DNA of 64,000 nucleotides from Octopus vulgaris. Lineage: Eukaryota. The stretch covers positions 65,100,001 through 65,164,000 of the forward strand of contig OX597827.1 of the NCBI GenBank assembly GCA_951406725.2, read 5' to 3'. The notes under the pieces are model-generated. The model did no database searches, was not told where the DNA came from, and saw only the letters and a program-made list of their open reading frames with translations. Of the stretch, positions 11,669 through 63,941 are shown one piece after another (the first letter of the stretch is position 1; each line of letters starts with the position of its first letter). The translations under genes and the position numbers were made by a program.

Positions 11669-12160
<492 letters not shown>

Positions 12161-12304
12161 GGTGTACATTTAAACACAAAAGAAAACTACCTTTTATAGG
12201 TAATTTTTACACGCTAGAAGACACAGTCAAAACGACCAAAACCACATTTTAAGAGCAATTTTCGAAGGGAATGAAAAATAAAAACTTTTACCTAGTTATC
12301 TTTT

Positions 12305-12377
12305 ACGGTCATACCCAGGTTTCAGATTATTTTAGCAAATAAATTATTTTGCTAGGAGAATCTTCATCAGTAACCGT
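12305..12377 (-). ncRNA. Type I hammerhead ribozyme
   Basis: Minus: ACGGUUA CUGAUGA AGAUU..UAGCAAA..UUUGCUA..AAUCU GAAA CCUGG GUA UGACCGU. Intact core, 7-bp stem I. Confidence 0.88.
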
Positions 12378-12745
12378 GCCTTAACAATTAACATATAATT
12401 TAGAGGCAAATAACACGCATCTCGTCATTATATTTTGTAATTTTTCAAAATTCACCGCGCAAGCACAGTTTCAGTCGAACTTCGAAAAGCTGGAATCAAA
12501 TTTGTAAAAACTATATAGAGTGGTGAATATTCTTAGAAATTTCACCAGCAGTGGCCTAGCATGTATAAAATGTCAATAGACAACGTATTCTCAATATAAA
12601 ATAGTTTACATTTAAACACAAAAGAAAACTACCTTTTATAGGTAATTTTTACACGCTAGAAGACGCAGTCAAAACGACCAAAACCACATTTTAAGAGCAA
12701 ATTTCGAAGGGACTGAAAAATAAAACATTTACCTCGTTATTTTTT

Positions 12746-12818
12746 ACGGTCATACCTAGGTTTCAGATTATTTTAGCAAAGAAAATAATTTGCTAGGCGA
12801 ATCTTCATCAGTAACCGT
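12746..12818 (-). ncRNA. Type I hammerhead ribozyme
   Basis: Minus: ACGGUUA CUGAUGA AGAUU..AAUCU GAAA CCUAG GUA UGACCGU. Stem III is the perfect palindrome ACCUAGGU. Confidence 0.9.
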
Positions 12819-13555
12819 GTAAGCATATGTAAGCATATGAATATGAAAAATAAACAGAGCAACATAGAGACGGATAGTTACATAGGTTATATGAATATAC
12901 AAGCACACATGCGCAAATGGAGACTGAAACACATGATCATATATATGCACATTTTAATTCACACAAGGACACATATGGAGACGTGCGTCCACACTTATGG
13001 TGAAGCACATCCATACATAGAAACATGGTACATAGTTGCAAAACACACACTCACACAGACATGCACGCACAAGGAGACAGAAGTGCATAGATATACAAAC
13101 ACACGCTCACACGCACGCGTACATAAAATATACACAAACACGGACATGCAAGCACATGGATATGCACAATACATACATACAGATGCACACACATACATGC
13201 ATATATACATATGCATACACACACGTATATACATACACACATGCATAGATACATACATATATACATAGATACATACATGCATGTATGCATAGGTACACAC
13301 ATGCACACTGACCCACGAACATGCGCACAAACAAAAAGGTTGCGAGACGTAACGAAAATTTTAGAAAACATTAGGAATTAGGAATAAGTGGAAATTTTAC
13401 CGGTGAGTGTGTTAAATTATAAGGCACAAAAAGAAAATGAGTCTCCCTAGATACAACAGTATATATATAGGGAGAAGTCACAAAAAAAAAGACGTAGACA
13501 TGTGGTGTAGACAACAAGCAGATGTATTAGTTTAACACTCGGGAAGAGAAAAAGT

Positions 13556-29607: not shown

Positions 29608-29700
29608 GGGAGCGATATGATTCACTCACGCTATCACTCTAATTTCTCCTTTCTCTTTGGAAGTGTGCAACGATTAAAGTGAAAACAGTGAATCCGACAG
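29349..29700 (+). mobile_element. Probable Helitron 5' portion, directly after another Helitron-like 3' end
   Basis: Starts A|TCTCTTATTATAAAAGG; preceded by hairpin ATCCAC-TAGA-GTGGAT and CTAG|T at 29341-29345. Confidence 0.5.
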
Positions 29701-29716
29701 CGATAAAGAAAATGAA

Positions 29717-30322
29717 TTGGCACCTGAATGGAGTGAAAATTTAAAAACTGTTTCTTTCGGTGATTTTTCTGAAGAAACTGGACCAAGCCACAGACTTTCC
29801 CAGAAGAGTAAAGCCTTAGACTATTTCTATTTACTTTTTCGAATGAGCCCATTTGAAATCATTACGGCGGAAACGAACTGTTACTCTAAACGTAAACAAA
29901 GCGAAAGAAAGGATAGTTTGTTATTTCCCACAACCTTAAATGAAATTAAGGCCTATTTTGCCATAAATATTATTATGGGTATCAGAAAGTTCTATCGTAA
30001 AATTTTGTTGTATACCCAATTGAATATTAGCTAATAACCCATTTTCTATAGCGATGTTTGAACAAAATTTTAATAATTTTATATATTGTTGAATTTACCT
30101 GTATCTACCTGCAATTAGAGTCACTTTGTGACAAAAATTATAGTATAGAATTGGTTGAGAACATTTTATTAAATTATCTTCCAAAATTCATGTTAATATA
30201 TTGATAAATAAAAAAGTTATAGTTGTTTAATGAAACCAGACTAACTTTATGATTACGTTAGAAATTAATTGAAACACATAAGGGGTGTATTTTGGTCAGA
30301 AATATAGTAGCGAAAGGGTTAA
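29717..30322 (+). mobile_element. piggyBac transposase fragment (PGBD-like) and piggyBac right end
   Basis: FSEETGP..ALDYFYLLF..EIITAETNCYS..PTTLNEIKAYFAINIIMGI resembles the N-terminal part of piggyBac DDE transposases; terminus AGGG-TTAA at 30315-30322. Confidence 0.8.
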
Positions 30323-32261: not shown

Positions 32262-32647
32262 ACTCTTTGCTCTTTTACTTGTTTCAGTCATTTGACTGTG
32301 GCCATGCTGGAGCACCACCTTTTAGTCGGGAAAATCAACCCCAGGACGTATTCTTTGTAAGCCTAGTACTTATTCTATCAGTCTCTTTTGCCGAACCGCT
32401 AAGGTACGGGGACGTAAACACACCAGCATCGGTTGTCAAGCGATGTTGGGGGACAAACACAGACACACAAACATATACACTTACACATACATATATATAC
32501 ATATATACGACGGGCTTCTTTCAGTTTCCGTCTACCAAATCCACTCACAAGGCTTTGGTCGGCCCGAGGTTATAGTAGAAGACACTTGCCCAAGGTGCCA
32601 CGCAGTGGAACTGAACCCGGAATCACGTGGTTCGTAAGCAAGCTACA
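32262..32647 (-). mobile_element. Family B SINE
   Basis: Reverse complement of the 16172-16592 family. Confidence 0.88.
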
Positions 32648-32804
32648 AAAGTATAGCCAATCATTAATTAGAAATTTCGAATTTGGGCACAGAATAATTC
32701 TTCTACAAGACCTACACGAATACAAGCGTATACTAACGAGAGTATTGTAGGTTTCCCCATATTTGATCCTAGGGGTAGGTGTAACTGTGTGGTTAGACGT
32801 TTAT

Positions 32805-33220
32805 GAGCTGGTAGAAATGTTAGTGCGCCGGACGAAATGCTTGGCGGTATTTGGTCTGTCTATATGATCCGAGTTCAAATTCCGCCGAGGTCGACTTTGC
32901 CTTTCATCCTTTCAAGGTCGGTAAATTCAGTACCAGTTACGCACTGGCGTCGATATAATCCACTTCAGCCATTTGTCTGTATTTTTTGTCCCCTCTGGGT
33001 GAAGCTCCTTGTGGGCAGTAAAGAAATAGAAATATGTATTTCGTCTGTCTTTACGTGCTATGTTCAAATTCCACCGAGTCCGACTTTGCCTTTCATCCTT
33101 TCGGGATCTGTAAATTCAGTACCAGTTACGCACTGTGTTCGATGTGATCGACTTAATTCCTTTATCTGTCCGTATTTGTCCCATCTATGTTTAGCCCCTT
33201 GTGGGCAATAAAGAAATAAG
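32805..33220 (+). mobile_element. Family A SINE, partial head-to-tail dimer
   Basis: Central domain and tail occur twice (from ~32873 and ~33062). Confidence 0.85.
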
Positions 33221-34187
33221 AAGTTTGCTTTCCAACCACATGGTCCCGTGTTCAGTCCCGCTGCGTGGCACCTTGCGCATGTGACTTCTATTATAACCTA
33301 CAGCCGACCAAAACCTCGTGAGAGGATTTGGTATATGGAAAGCAAAAGAAGTCCGTTATGCGTGTGTGTATATGTGTGTGCGTGTGATTGTCGCCCGACA
33401 GCACTTGTCAATTGGTGTTGATGTGCTTACATCCTCCCAGCTTAGCTGTTCGGCGATAAAGATCGATAGAATAAGAACCAGGCTTAAACGTAAGTATTGG
33501 GGGTCGATTCATCTGGCAAAAAATTCTTCAGGGCGGTGCCCTAGCTTGGCCGCAGTCTAATGACTGCCACAAGTAAAACATAAGAACATTACAAACAAAT
33601 CCCAGGTATCTATCGGCTTCTTAAATAGAACAGTCCGTATATGCTCTGCTGCAATACTGTTATTAATTCATTTAAAATTATATAACGGACTTCTTCCTTA
33701 TTTAATAATTTCATGGTGCAATATTTGAATAAATAAAGTTTTGAGTTAGTTTCTATGCCTATTTAACAGTTTCTGTTCAGCGGTTTCTCTCCGTCCATGA
33801 AAAAATCTTGATAATCGAATCAAATAGAATTTAATGCTTCGCATAACAAGTCAAACGTAGATGACCTAATCTCGAAACGTATCTATGTAGATACATCCGT
33901 ACATCCGCATATATCTGTACACATATATACGCATATACATACATGCCCAAGAATACATATGCACGTGCGCACAGACACACATACATATGTATATTCTTAT
34001 ACATACATACATATGTGTGTGTGTGTTCGAGTGTGTACGTGTTCCACTGTCTACGTATGTATGTTCCGGGTATGGCAATACATTGCATCTCTTTGAGGCT
34101 GTTCTGGGCCTCCAGAATTGTGGGTAGCTTGACGGAACCCCTTCATTACCATTAATCCCAGTTCAGTTTCGCTCTGTACTCAAATCT

Positions 34188-38251: not shown

Positions 38252-38408
38252 TGGAGTGACTGTGTGGTAAGTAGCTTGCTAACCAATCACATGGTTCCGG
38301 GTTCAGTCCCACTGCGTGGCATCTTGGGCAAGTGTCTTCTGCTATAGCCTCGGGCCGACCAATGACTTGTGAGTGGATTTGGTAGACGGAAACTGAAAGA
38401 AGCCTGTC

Positions 38409-38458
<50 letters not shown>

Positions 38459-38673
38459 ATATGTTTGTGTGTCTGTGTTTGTTCCTCTAGCATTGCTTGA
38501 CAACCAATGCTGGTGTGTTTAGGTCCCCGTCACTTAGCGGTTCGGCAAAAGAGACCGATAGAATAAGTACTGGGCTTACAAAGAATAAGTCCCGGGGTCG
38601 ATTTGCTCGACTAAAGGTGGTGCTCCAACATGGCCGCAGTCAAATGACTGAAACAAGTAAAAGAGTAAAAGAG
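38252..38673 (+). mobile_element. Family B SINE
   Basis: Near full-length match to 16172-16592. Confidence 0.9.
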
Positions 38674-39211
38674 TATGTGTTATTTTATATGTTATTACCG
38701 TATTGGCAATTATATAATACACAAGCTTTGATCGACACGGAGCTGCGATACAAGAGAATTGCTCAACTGCCGCATAGTGGGTCTGAACCCAAGGTGACAT
38801 GGTTAGAAAGCAAGCTCTTCAACCACACAGCCACATCTATAAAGGAGAGCTATATTTTTTTGGATAATATACTGTTTGATACAACATACTTGACAAAAAG
38901 ATGGGATGTTTACGGCGAGAAGACTTTTGATTTTGATATTTACTCGAGCACCAACTAACAACGCTACCCATTACAGGATGTTCCACAATCAACTAACTGT
39001 TTCAATGAAATAGAGCACGTTTAAAAAAAAATTGATAGAATTTTATATTTATTACCAAAGCGTAGGTTTATAAATCCTACGTCAAACGTTTATTGAAAAT
39101 TTTCAACATGTCTGTATCACTGCATACTTCAAATCATTCCTTAGCGTTGTGAAACACATTTTGAAGCACTTCTCATTTCTAAGGTATTTTTCGATGTTGT
39201 TGTTGTTGTAG

Positions 39212-39299
<88 letters not shown>

Positions 39300-39529
39300 T
39301 ACTATTATTATTATTATTATTATCACGAATAATTTAAATGTAATTATTCGTTGAATCGTCAAATATATGTTTTCCTGGAAAGAAGCAGGATTTCGCTGCT
39401 GTAGCGTCACTCCACCATAGGCAGCCTATGAACTTTTCAACCCACCTTCGTACACACACACACACGCACACGCACACACAAACAGACGCATACGCACACC
39501 CTCAAGCACACACACACACACGCGCACAA

Positions 39530-39582
<53 letters not shown>

Positions 39583-39863
39583 TACAAGCACACGCACAAA
39601 CAAACATAGATATAGATATATATATACGCAAACTACATCTGCAAAAACCTGAAGGAATCAAGAAATGGTAAATTCGTGCAAAATAAATCACAATGAAATA
39701 CGTAAGCAATAAATATAGAGACAAAGAAATAAATAGAACTTAATATATCACTATTCTATAACGAGTAGAAAGATGTTGCAATAAATCTAATACGATAAAT
39801 AAGTAATTTGTAAGGTTGAAATGAAAATCTTAGACAATATGATAAACAAATACTAAATTTACC

Positions 39864-40075
39864 TCTTTTACTTGTTTCAGTCATTTGACTGTGGCCATGC
39901 TGGAGCACCGCCTTTAAATCGAGCAACTCGACCCCAGGACTTATTCTTTTGTAAGCCCAGTACTTATTCTATCGGTCTCTTTTGCCGAACCGGTAAGTAA
40001 CGGGGACATAAGCACACCAGCATCGGTTGTCAAGCAATGCTAGGGGGACAAATACAGACACACAAACACACGCAC

Positions 40076-40108
<33 letters not shown>

Positions 40109-40274
40109 TACGACGGGCTTCTTTCAGTTTCCGTCCACCAAATCCACTCACAAGGCATTGGTCGGCCCGAGGCTATAGTAGAAGACACTTGCCCAAGGTG
40201 CCACGCAGTGGGACTGAACCCGGAACCATGTGGTTGGTAAACAAGCTACTTACCACACAGCCACTCCTGCGCCT
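39864..40274 (-). mobile_element. Family B SINE
   Basis: Full-length reverse complement copy. Confidence 0.9.
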
Positions 40275-45819: not shown

Positions 45820-46912
45820 ACATGTAACTATCAAAAATGTATACATATTTTTATACATTTATATATGTGTGGGTGTGTGTACACCCCATCATACTCATAC
45901 GCACGCACCCCACATACTCATGTATGTTTTGTATGTATGCATATATCCTTTATCTTTGTGTGTCTGTGTTTGACGTTTGTACAGAGGATAATAATGTGTA
46001 TTCATAATGCTAAGTTTGAAGTCGTTTGATAAATAACCTGTGCTAATGGAATAGTTATGTGGTTTTTAGAGCCATTGGGCATATATTTCTAGCGGATAGG
46101 TGTGGTAAATTCGCACCCTTTGCTATAATTATAAATTTAGCATAAAACATTACGTAAAATGTTTTATTTCACGCTTGCCACTTGAGGAAATCATTGAAGT
46201 GATTTTATTCTTAATTCTATAGAAAGAAAAAAAAAACATTTGCTCCAAATAAAATCGCATTTGCTGCGGGGTTATTTTGATAAAACAAAAGAAAAAACAT
46301 GCTGTTGAGATAAGAAGATAAATTGGATTTTTACTAGTATATACGTACAAATCTATGTATATGGTCGTACCACTTTGATGTTCGTATGGGTGTGTATAAA
46401 TATTTGTATGTATGTGCTTGGATACATTTTACTGAAGATAACAAGGTGTTTTCTTAACGCTAAGTTTGGAATCGTTCACTATACAATTGATCAAAAGGTG
46501 TCATTTATTTTTTCATGTGTCCGATTACAACCTGTACTAATACAGTAGCGAGGTGGCTATTAGAGCCATCTTGCATCTATTTCTGGCGTGTAGGTGTGGT
46601 AAATATGCACCTTTAATATAATTATCCACATGATTATAAATTTAGCATAAACTATTACCTACAAGAGTTTAAATTTTCCTTGGACATTTGATAAACTCAT
46701 TAGAGTGATTTTATCCTTAATTCTATATAAAGAATATATACATATCTATGTGCACGCACACATACACACATACATATACTCTTATTAAAGCTGAAAAAAT
46801 ATCACAAGACTGTTACTCTTAGTTTCACGTTGCCGTTTATGGAACGATTATGATTGTGTAGTGTGTGTATATCAGTGAGCGTGGGTGTGTTAACATATAT
46901 ATATATATATAT

Positions 46913-47542
46913 ACGAGAAAGAAGCAACAAGAATGGATTGGTTTTTAGTACAATTGTTTCATACAAAGACAGGCTTTATTACAAGTTGCAAAAATTGCAG
47001 CAGATAAAAGTGTCCCGTACTCATCAGCTAAAATACATTTGAGTTCTCTAGACATCTTAGTGGGTGAGGTTATACTCATGAAATATTGGAGATAGTTCCA
47101 TTAGAGGCAGATATAGGTTGTAAACAGCTTTCCAAAGTTCCTTAATGATGATGCACAGTCTTATCACAGATTTTTAAAAAACTTATTAGTTTCGAAGAGA
47201 AGATGAATCAATCCATAGTGTAGATTTAAATTTCCAGAGATATGAGGAGGATGATGCACAGACTTATCACAGGTTTTTAAAGACTTATTAGCTTCAGAGA
47301 AAAGGTGAATTAATCCATAGTGAAGATTTACATTTCCAGTGGTAAGATGAGGGATTTCATACTCACAGACGATGTATTTAACCATTATTAATCCACAATC
47401 ATTTCATGCTATATGATAAGGTAATTTGCCATGTTATTGCTGCACTTTTATCTGCTGCAATTTTTGCAACTTGTAATAAAGCCTGTCTTTGTGTGAAACA
47501 ATTGTACTAAAAACCAATCCATTCTTGTTGCTTCTTTCTCGT
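46913..47542 (-). mobile_element. PLE-like element with 100-bp inverted repeats and a hammerhead
   Basis: 46913-47012 is the reverse complement of 47443-47542 (1 mismatch seen); internal ~102-bp tandem duplication; abuts (TA)n. Confidence 0.8.
46943..47033 (-). ncRNA. Type I hammerhead ribozyme with extended stem II
   Basis: Minus: UUUUAG CUGAUGA GUACGGGACA..UGUCUUUGUAU GAAA CAAUU GUA CUAAAA; stem III palindrome ACAAUUGU. Confidence 0.85.
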
Positions 47543-47663
47543 TTAAAATCACCCCACATTACTGTATGGATAACACCATATAGTTTTTTCTGGTGCATCT
47601 AAGTTAAGTACCACATTCAAGTAAATTCATTGGAAGTTACTTGAATCTTAATTGCTTTGATTA

Positions 47664-47719
<56 letters not shown>

Positions 47720-48512: not shown

Positions 48513-48929
48513 CTCAAGGCGATAAAAGGTATTACTAATGTTGTCTAAAAATTCCATGTTTCATTTGTTGTTACGGATTTATTCCCTTACCTAACTTCAT
48601 GACATTGCTTTTAATAAATCTTGATTTTTATGACTATGCCATCTAGAATGTCTGTCTACTCCCTCAGCCCTACCCCAAACAAATACTGCCCTCTGTTTCT
48701 CTCAGTCTTAAATAAACAAGGGTTTTGATAAACTGCTCTATAAATTGAAACTGACCCATCAAAAATAAAAATATCAGTGACAGGCAGTGACTCCTTGAAA
48801 ATTTTAGTTACGACTATGCTGTTGTAGGTACAACATGTTCTTTGTCTATCTTCTTAACTTCTTGGAGATTTTATGTATAATTATACTGTGTCCATCGGTT
48901 CTAATTTAATTAAATTATATGTCTTTGTA

Positions 48930-49006
48930 CAGCTGAAGATCGCGCTACATTTATTGTAATGATTGAAATGTTCAATTAAATGGAGTTGCATGAAACGATC
49001 GTACTG
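48930..49006 (+). ncRNA. Type I hammerhead-like motif
   Basis: CAG CUGAAGA (imperfect long stem II) GAAA CGAUC GUA CUG; stem III palindrome ACGAUCGU; ends ~35 nt before (TA)n. Confidence 0.7.
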
Positions 49007-50497
49007 CATTATCTCTGGATATCCTTGTTGCGTATTTTGATTATATATATATATATACGTGTAAATACACAAGTAGTAAGTGAGCTAGGAGGTGGGTGAG
49101 AGCGAGAAACATTGCGATGGGAAACTATATATGTACACATATAGGTATATATATATGCATATGTATTTGTTTCTATGTGTTTGTGTGTGTGTGTATACAC
49201 CTACACCATAGTCATGCTGTCTTTCGACATGAAATATTTCCATTACCTAATAAGAAAATTGATTACCTGTCAAATCCTGTATAATGAGTTCATCTAAGTT
49301 CAAATCACACCTTATTTTCCATAGCTTGGCCAGAGTGTTCTGTACAATATAGAGATCGAAGCAATATTAGGAAACTTAAAGTATACGACATATAACGAGA
49401 GGGAAAAACAGCTAGAGAAGTTATATGAGGGAGAAATGTGTGACAAGAGTGATAAAGAAAGCGAGGGAAGCCGTGTAAGAATAAATATATATAGTTAAAC
49501 AGAGGCTTGATCAGAGAGAAAAACAGAAATAAATTAAGCAGTTTTACAGATGGGCGAAATTAAGGAAATAAATAATATAATGTCTGTGCGTTTATATGTG
49601 TGCGCGAGTGAGTGTGTGTGTCTGTGTGTGTCTGTGTGTGTGAGCGTGTTTCTGTGTTTATGTACATTTGCAGGTGTGTATATTTGCCTGAGATTAGTAG
49701 CTGGCAATTTCACAGGCGTTCAACAGATACTACGTGTCAGTATTTAGTAAGATCCCAAGGTTAATTTGCATTTCAATCCTTCAGGATTCGTACATGAGAT
49801 ATCACTGAAAGAATGAATTCGATTTAACCGACTATAACTTAATCTTAATATAAGGCGGCATCATAGCAGTCATAGAAAGCATACGGACTAAACCCATGAC
49901 GTAGTATTTGTAATTAAGAACAAAATATTAAAAATTAAACGCTTGTACAGATATCGTCAAATTTGTAATAAACATTTGATCATTGAAATTATATTGCCTT
50001 ATAAAGACTGAATATTTTACATAATATTAAATACAAAATTGGGTTAACATATTTAATCCGAAGTAAAAATAACAGGGTAAAATATGTTTAATACACTTTT
50101 AATTTAAATATTATTCGGTAAATATGTTAAAATGTAACAACTTAATATTCAATATGTAAATTAGTAAATTTTTAATGCTTGGGGTTTCTACGGTTATTTT
50201 AAAAAGTAAAACACTATTAGATGTTCGTAGTGGGAAATGGTAGTTAAAAACTTTATTCGTCATTTTATATCTTAATGAATCTCGATCTTACTAATGGTGT
50301 AAAGTCCAAAAACGTAGAACTAAATGTGCAGTTTTGGGAGGAACGAATTGGAAAATTATCTTCATTCTATCTTGTAACAGATTTATTGATTTTTTTAAAT
50401 TTCTATATCATGATGTGAACGCAGTTTCGAAATAGTAATATTCTAATACTTGTGAGTAAAATTCAAATATATATCTACTACGCTGAACTATACCGCA

Positions 50498-51010: not shown

Positions 51011-51103
51011 CCCGACAAATGTTTCGATTTACTCTCTAAATTAATAAAGAGTTCATAAGGATTCATATTTTGGAAATAGTTTGAGTAAAAATCTCATCAG
51101 AGC
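51011..51103 (-). ncRNA. Type I hammerhead-like motif with decayed stem I
   Basis: Minus: CUGAUGA GAUUUUUACUC..GAGUAAAUC GAAA CAUUU GUC; stem I is weak. Confidence 0.6.
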
Positions 51104-56214: not shown

Positions 56215-56252
<38 letters not shown>

Positions 56253-56256
<4 letters not shown>

Positions 56257-56545
56257 TAATCAAGGAACGGCCATAATAGGCCATTCACCCACTAGAAATA
56301 ACAGCCAAAAGCTTTATTTCTTACTGATGAATCTAAGAGCCTATGGTAGATTGGCTTGATTTAATTTAATCAGGTTAGTTTTCCATTAAACAGTAGATGA
56401 AACGGTGCATCGTCTAAGAAATTACAGGGTAAATATTTTTTAATTTTCTCCTGGTTTACGGAATTGACATTATTTTGCGGTTAAAGCTTTTGGCTGTTAT
56501 TTCTAGTGGGTGAATGGCCTATTATGGCCGTTCCTTGATTGTGAT
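56253..56545 (+). mobile_element. PLE-like element with 64-bp inverted repeats enclosing a hammerhead
   Basis: 56253-56316 is the reverse complement of 56482-56545 (1 mismatch); begins directly after (TA)n. Confidence 0.8.
56316..56422 (+). ncRNA. Type I hammerhead ribozyme with long stem II
   Basis: AUUUCUUA CUGAUGA AUCUA..UAGAU GAAA CGGUGCAUC GUC UAAGAAAU; perfect 8-bp stem I, GUC cleavage site. Confidence 0.92.
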
Positions 56546-56642
56546 GTTGAACTTAAAAATGGTTTATGACTATTTAATTTTTTCCCACTAGGCCGCTGGT
56601 GGCAAAAGAATTCTACAAAATTTTTTTGCCACCCTATATTGA

Positions 56643-56697
<55 letters not shown>

Positions 56698-59951: not shown

Positions 59952-60491
59952 TATAAAGGGATGTCTACAAAAAGATGTCTCAGGAGACTAGGGAGATTTA
60001 AAGTCAAAACTACCATGATAAATATACAGTCTACCGTATGAGAAGGGAATACAACTCTCGAAGTGAGCGCCTTAAATACAGATTCAGTTGCAAGTCGTAT
60101 GATTTCATTGTTAGTGTACATAATCCACTTTCTAATCGTCAGGAATAATTAAGAATTTTTCCCTTATGAGCTTTTCACGGTGATTATAAAAATTTTATCC
60201 TATTTAAAATTATATATATATAGACACATGTATATAAGTTCAGTAAAATTTAGATTCAGATGAATATGGTACTTAAGTTGAAGGCACCAGAATTTAGTAT
60301 GGTATTATCCATATGATTTAAAATAAGGTGATTATAATCAAAATAAGCAGCATTACCTCTGGATATCCTTGTAGCTTATTTTGATTATATATATATATAA
60401 ACGGAAAGTTTACGAAAGTAAACAAAAGACGAAGGCAGGTGGTTTACAAACAAACAGATGTATTAGTATAGCGCTCAGGAATAGAAAAAGT

Positions 60492-63395: not shown

Positions 63396-63435
63396 TATGT
63401 TAAATTTTAATTTATATAAATTATTTTATGTATTG

Positions 63436-63488
63436 GATTAAGTCTTTCTTTGTTTGATTTGCATAATAGTGATTTTGTCTCTAATTTG

Positions 63489-63524
<36 letters not shown>

Positions 63525-63626
63525 TATATATGCATATGCATATATATATACACCGAACAATTTAAGCAAATACTTGAATTTCCGTTAGAAGACGTCTATA
63601 TAAATATATGCATGTACTTACTCATG

Positions 63627-63667
<41 letters not shown>

Positions 63668-63716
63668 TTAGAGACAAAAACCACTATTATGCAAATCAAA
63701 CAAAGAAAGACTTAAG
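63436..63716. repeat. Two inverted copies of a (TA)n-associated element terminus
   Basis: TTAAGTCTTTCTTTGTTTGATTTGCATAATAGTG.TTTTGTCTCTAATTT and its reverse complement at ~63664-63716; same terminus at ~35960-35986 and ~44340-44376. Confidence 0.75.
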
Positions 63717-63941
63717 CCAATATATATATATATATATTCAAATATATATGTATAAATATATGAATGCAAATATAGATATGGGTATATGTTTATAAATGTA
63801 TACAGATATAAACATATGTAAATGGAGTTTCAGCGGGATAGTGTCTATAAATATATGCACATACACATTTAAGCACATAATCACATATGAGTATTATGTG
63901 TAAGTGCACATCATGTGTTATAAGTGTATATGTACATATCC

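Follow-up and report, generated by a model that had tools for sequence, protein, structure and literature searches.

A hammerhead ribozyme between unequal inverted arms in Octopus vulgaris: a probable truncated retrozyme copy with a Penelope-like insertion pattern

Architecture of the Element at 56 kb

The stretch of Octopus vulgaris DNA analyzed here (64,000 nt of contig OX597827.1; hereafter the window) is rich in microsatellites. Near 56 kb, it contains a type I hammerhead on the plus strand (56317..56421), which the motif scan and its coordinates place between two 64-bp arms. The features of this locus are as follows.

56217..56252, no strand: (TA)n microsatellite, left flank and likely target, 0 nt from the element end (from the sequence)
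56253..56316, minus: left arm, an inverted 64-bp copy of 56482-56545, 63/64 complementary, interpreted as the 3' remnant of another, shorter copy
56316-56323 with 56415-56422, plus: stem I, 8 pairs (motif scan, helix comparison)
56324-56330, plus: core CUGAUGA (motif scan, helix comparison)
56331-56335/56394-56398, plus: stem II, 5 pairs around a 58-nt insert that contains a hairpin
56399-56402, plus: GAAA box (motif scan, helix comparison)
56402-56413, plus: stem III, palindromic, 4 pairs including A15.1-U16.1, with a 4-nt loop
56412-56414, plus: GUC, predicted cut after 56414 (motif scan)
56482..56545, plus: right arm, ordinary internal family sequence with hairpin 1 (56512-56533)
56545-56551, plus: end A, first recurrent 3' end (contig ends in TA runs)
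56546..56649, plus: one-sided tail, about 104 bp long, which contains hairpin 2 (56598-56633) and reaches the TA run at end B
56650..56680, no strand: (TA)n microsatellite, right flank, 1 nt from the element end (from the sequence)

The two arms are separated by 165 nt. An earlier note on this DNA had described 64-bp inverted repeats that enclose the hammerhead, the left one ending at the first base of stem I, and both observations hold, position 56316 being at once the end of the arm and the start of the stem. The same note took the repeats as the boundaries of the element (56253..56545). This has to be revised, since family sequence runs 104 bp beyond the right arm and the right end of the element lies at about 56649. 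The tail is covered by family contigs in all four public runs examined. Both flanks are TA runs, and a target-site duplication is unreadable inside such a run. Each of the five element ends checked has a TA run 0–3 nt away, while a distance of 10 nt or less applies to 3% of window positions. The element has a GC content of 33% and no reading frame longer than 47 codons, and on the plus strand, where the longest frame is 34 codons, none follows the hammerhead.

The motif has the conserved hammerhead core (CUGANGA, GAAA, UH) around three helices, with stem I open. Four type I hammerheads were detected in the window by motif scan, three of which pass the strict cut-off, and ten block-shuffled windows used as a chance control gave three loose and no strict matches. 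The core is intact and the hammerhead well formed, as in the earlier description, with GUC at 56412-56414. The 8-bp stem I of that description needs a qualification: eight pairs are present, but the family sequence (from 56317 on) supplies only seven, and the eighth is lent by the left arm. Stem III is the longest among the four hammerheads of the window. The arm has taken the place of the family sequence upstream of stem I, and stem II is of extended length; a contact between loops 1 and 2 is thus hard to place. A search of Rfam returned no hammerhead match for this motif, either at the gathering threshold or at E<=10. It also missed the hammerhead pair at 12 kb described below, and the matches that it returned were microsatellite or hairpin noise. 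The long stem II of both hammerheads probably explains these misses.

Related Hammerheads and Other Repeats in the Window

Two further hammerhead loci bear on the nature of the 56-kb element.

12160..12819, minus: incomplete tandem repeat of a 441-bp unit with a hammerhead; cores at 12811 and 12370; (TA)n at its end; 93% identity between units
46910..47665, minus: independent hammerhead insertion, sense copy ending in (TA)n, with a lopsided inverted layout like that at 56 kb

The 12-kb tandem is a diverged homolog of the 56-kb element. Its core-to-core spacing is 441 bp, and it contains no ORF. When 56423-56645 was compared with the 12-kb repeat, the local score was 65.5, which was reached by none of 500 shuffles (maximum 42) and by none of 467 background pieces from the window. 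The tail alone scored 46 against the 12-kb unit (0 of 300 shuffles, maximum 35), and the part up to the end of the right arm scored 36 (1 of 300 shuffles). The right arm is homologous to an internal part of the 12-kb tandem unit. The two families have two hairpins in common, whose stems differ, and a CTAG lies a few bases from each hairpin. In the hammerheads themselves, all 12 pairs of stems I and II are kept between the 56-kb and 12-kb motifs, seven with changes on both sides and one with a change on one side, although only two sequences are compared. This comparison was made by coordinates because MAFFT misaligned the hammerhead part of both units.

The 47-kb insertion carries an inverted 100-bp copy (47443-47542, 99%) followed by a tail of about 120 bp that reaches another (TA)n. 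It has no homology to the 3' part of the 56-kb element. In its inverted copy, the core is changed (another base precedes GAAA) and the copy ends short of the CUGAUGA box. A short internal duplication is present in the middle of the insertion.

Several other pieces were compared with these loci. In shuffle-tested alignments, the 56-kb element had no homology to the pieces at 47, 51, or 63 kb, and its similarity to the 48.9-kb piece was borderline, with 5 of 300 shuffles reaching the score. The latter piece (48925-49041, plus) is a degenerate hammerhead with a CUGAAGA core and a palindromic stem III that ends in a TA run. Its alignment to the 47-kb motif is loose; the final 40 bases closely match 60345-60390. 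A fragment at 60254-60390 is 70% similar to the 47-kb tail, shares its end with the 48.9-kb motif, and adjoins a TA run. At 51100 (minus) and 59205 (plus), core-like CUGAUGA ... GAAAC pairs failed the helix test; they are possibly decayed hammerheads. A 55-bp inverted pair at 63434-63719 (95%) has its inner ends at TA runs, and no hammerhead was seen in it. Long inverted pairs of dispersed repeats were found at 38253-40267 (433 bp at 88%) and 32273-33578 (382 bp at 71%).

Of 117 non-simple run edges, 6 had the pentamer TTGAT within 16 nt of the TA junction, compared with 2.0 expected (p 0.016). The sites are 47663, 49041, 56255, 56647, 60385, and 63493, five of them at the ends of hammerhead-family pieces. 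As a signal before TA runs, this candidate was rejected as too weak, the motif having been picked after the data had been seen. An open frame at 29678-30034 (plus) matches DDE_Tnp_1_7 (PF13843, E 1.3e-06) and is a transposase fragment. No tRNA genes were found in the 64-kb window. A bacterial promoter scan stayed at chance level, its model being inapplicable to a eukaryotic window.

The Family in Public Contigs

Of 24 listed public runs, 20 contain this stretch, under three organism labels and from eight studies; none of them is on record as RNA, and X5 may be RNA. In four of these (X1, X2, X5, and X6), contigs were aligned to 56317-56650; such material consists of contigs only and is silent on RNA ends and strand. 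The numbers of aligned contigs were 3568, 10,763, 41, and 30, and their depth does not give a copy number. In the two large sets, 2469 (of 3568) and 8601 (of 10,763) contigs were less than 99% alike. Thousands of contigs, most of them below this similarity, point to a large, varied, high-copy family. One X6 contig runs on from position 56650 into 56317 after 156 intervening letters, which gives a unit of about 490 bp, either tandem or circular. This unit size is weakly indicated at the sequence level by one contig in one small run, and it is backed by the 441-bp tandem homolog at 12 kb.

The contigs also inform on the ends of the element. The outer end of the left arm adjoins the left TA run, and in three of the four runs loose ends occur at the register of this outer end. 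Family contigs enter TA runs at 56545 (X6, one contig, which could derive from the 56-kb locus itself), at 56547 (X5, one contig), and at about 56551 (22 contigs of X2 taken as a consensus, with a median loose length of only 11). In other copies, stem I is preceded by letters that differ from the arm (three contigs in X1, two in X5, and contig 25 in X6). None of the six joints listed for the four runs changes strand, and 108 further loose ends fall outside this list. As judged from these contigs, inversions thus find no support as a common feature of the 56-kb family. The arm-to-ribozyme junction of the 56-kb locus itself is also missing among the listed joints, so the sensitivity of this detection is uncertain.

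At position 56414, where the window has C, most of the family depth has A (214,897/332,280 in X1 and 2,570,549/2,806,197 in X2). GUA is thus the usual predicted cleavage site of the family and GUC a minority form, both being UH sites. Among the rows listed for family contigs, core differences occur in only one contig, with a depth of 3.7 (X5).

Exact-pattern scans of metagenome contigs and of viral contigs gave zero matches each. No paper on this family was found; subscription journals and Repbase/Dfam lay outside the scope of the search, and the family may be catalogued there. A repeat annotation of one octopus genome makes no mention of a ribozyme in its available text (PMC13282606).

Predicted Folding and Cleavage

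In the minimum free energy (MFE) fold of the 56-kb monomer, part of the catalytic core pairs with the 3' strand of stem III. The penalty for the active fold amounts to 5.2–5.7 kcal/mol across four constructs, compared with 5.4, 8.4, and 9.7 kcal/mol for the other three motifs of the window, and is among the lowest of the four; such fold energies omit tertiary contacts. The C at 56414 was considered as the sole cause of the misfold and rejected, as the penalty is still 4.8–5.4 kcal/mol with the majority letter of the family. When two copies of the 56-kb motif were folded without constraint, the MFE structure was a double hammerhead, more stable than two monomers by 10.7 kcal/mol. The transcript of the 12-kb tandem, likewise unconstrained, folds into a double hammerhead in cis.

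According to these predictions, the solo copy at 56 kb would cut well only as a dimer, and it has no partner in cis. Since the 56-kb monomer is predicted to misfold and the dimer to be active, the 12-kb tandem pair is the better candidate for cutting in cis and the best one in the window. The earlier note had expected stem III to fold as a monomer as well as a palindromic dimer. The palindrome is present and the dimer is predicted to be active, whereas the monomer is predicted to misfold. Its ranking of the 56-kb motif as the one most likely to be active in the window is doubtful by the same models, the motif being solo, mispaired in its core, and deprived of the family sequence upstream of stem I. 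Double-hammerhead dimers have been described for animal type I motifs (PMC4209133), and one of nine tested dimers cleaved in a recent study (10.64898/2026.07.22.740005). The 56-kb locus itself is probably a dead-end copy.

Origin of the Arms and Proposed Integration

The 56-kb element is likely to be a copy, truncated at its 5' end, of a non-LTR retrozyme that is about 490 bp long, non-coding, and present in many copies. The copy is inserted in (TA)n, and its arms were likely made by a Penelope-like enzyme acting in trans. Penelope-like elements are known for 5' truncation, an adjacent inverted truncated copy, flanking inverted repeats, a tail of 30–40 bp at one end, and a bias toward (TA)n (PMC8557442, PMC3846280, PMC8969392). 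The one-sided tail, the homology past the right arm, the TA flanks, and the contig ends at the register of the left arm all support this reading, and the 47-kb insertion, although unrelated in sequence, repeats the layout of arm plus tail. The length of the tail speaks against it, being about 104 bp here and about 120 bp at 47 kb versus the published 30–40 bp.

In the proposed pathway, tandem copies would be transcribed, and two hammerheads would associate by way of the palindromic stem III and release a unit-length RNA. A Penelope-like reverse transcriptase/endonuclease would then nick both strands of a (TA)n target and prime two cDNAs. The first, starting from end B, would copy 334 nt, up to stem I, and the second, starting from end A, would copy 64 nt. 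Head-to-head joining of the truncated cDNA ends may then give the unequal inverted arms. As no frame exceeds 47 codons, the enzyme would act in trans. A Penelope-like coding sequence was looked for in the window and not found, and six of the window's frames, compared with Pfam, matched no RT or GIY-YIG family. For a purified Penelope-like enzyme, cleavage and extension of both strands of the target have been described, with two internal start sites on the RNA that define the tail (PMC11167929). For the inverted structure there are two models, the two-primer step and the self-priming on an antisense template favored in PMC3846280, and the present data fit both.

The main rival explanation dispenses with a separate retrozyme family and regards the locus as the stump of an autonomous Penelope-like element, namely its pseudo-LTR (pLTR) end with a hammerhead, truncated and partly inverted. 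The identical insertion pattern would be expected from such an element, most hammerheads of Penelope-like elements are solo motifs from truncated copies (PMC4209133), and the tandem evidence for the exact 56-kb family comes from a single contig. It is nevertheless unlikely, because pLTRs hold the start of an ORF (PMC11167929, PMC3846280), whereas no reading frame follows this hammerhead (longest plus-strand frame 34 codons), and because the homolog at 12 kb repeats from core to core without an ORF. An ordinary retrozyme copy might instead have gained its arm after insertion, by a template switch during replication or by repair beside the microsatellite. Local inverted pairs without hammerheads do occur elsewhere in the window, which has six listed pairs in all, and strand-changing joints are absent among those listed for the family. 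The outer end of the arm, however, coincides with the ends of other copies at TA runs, and the arm-plus-tail layout recurs at 47 kb, which makes a late gain of the arm improbable.

The long, near-perfect inverted repeats, the short non-coding core, and the adjacent TA also recall a MITE, in which case a derivative of a DNA transposon, bounded by 64-bp inverted repeats, would have acquired a hammerhead. Family sequence, however, continues for 104 bp past the right arm, which is therefore not terminal; this arm is also homologous to an internal part of a tandem unit, and in three of the four runs the letters upstream of stem I differ from the arm. The junction of a MITE family should moreover be abundant, and none of the six listed joints changes strand, with the uncertain sensitivity noted above. 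On this evidence, a MITE is very improbable. Least credible is a Helitron-like rolling-circle DNA element, suggested by the hairpins and CTAG motifs near the ends. Both hairpins, with their nearby CTAG, are indeed common to the 12-kb family, but the CTAG motifs are internal with homology continuing on both sides, neither end is CTRR, and the compensatory change in the hammerhead points to an RNA stage.

Comparison with Known Elements and Significance

Nothing in the ribozyme type, the retrozyme class, or the insertion pattern is new in itself. With the animal non-LTR retrozymes (Cervera & de la Peña 2020, PMC7229834; Li, Clavereau & Pollet 2026, 10.64898/2026.07.22.740005), the 56-kb family shares the type I hammerhead and the short, low-GC, non-coding, high-copy tandem unit. 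Solo monomers and a palindromic stem III are likewise found in both. A mollusc retrozyme of 350–390 bp described in these sources lacks the usual loop contacts. Unlike these retrozymes, the 56-kb family has a unit of about 490 bp and a structured stem II insert of 58 nt, and the element has an inverted arm and a one-sided tail. The word "inverted" is absent from the available text of PMC7229834 and occurs once, in a reference title, in that of 10.64898/2026.07.22.740005.

The endonuclease-bearing Penelope-like elements (PMC8557442, PMC3846280, PMC11167929) show the same truncation, inverted copy, one-end tail, and (TA)n bias, with a hammerhead near the end. The 56-kb element differs from them in having no RT/GIY-YIG ORF and in its tail of about 104 bp, and its hammerhead has a real stem III, unlike the minimal form (PMC4209133). 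MITEs (PMC8969392) are also short and non-coding with long inverted repeats, which in the 56-kb element are not terminal. The earlier warning that the element could be misfiled as a MITE is well founded; such copies can be misfiled in this way and are missed by Rfam.

So far, co-occurrence and sequence similarity are the grounds for naming the enzyme that mobilizes animal retrozymes, the link to Penelope-like elements being based on their joint occurrence and on similarity to pLTRs (10.64898/2026.07.22.740005, PMC7761336). The integration footprint at 56 kb adds evidence of another kind, and ends A and B are two candidate priming sites. More tentatively, and with slightly less than an even chance in our estimation, the Penelope footprint on ORF-less retrozymes may mean that the enzyme mobilizes them in trans and that two priming sites, each marked by a hairpin, separated by about 100 nt, and kept between diverged families, are a candidate cis signal.
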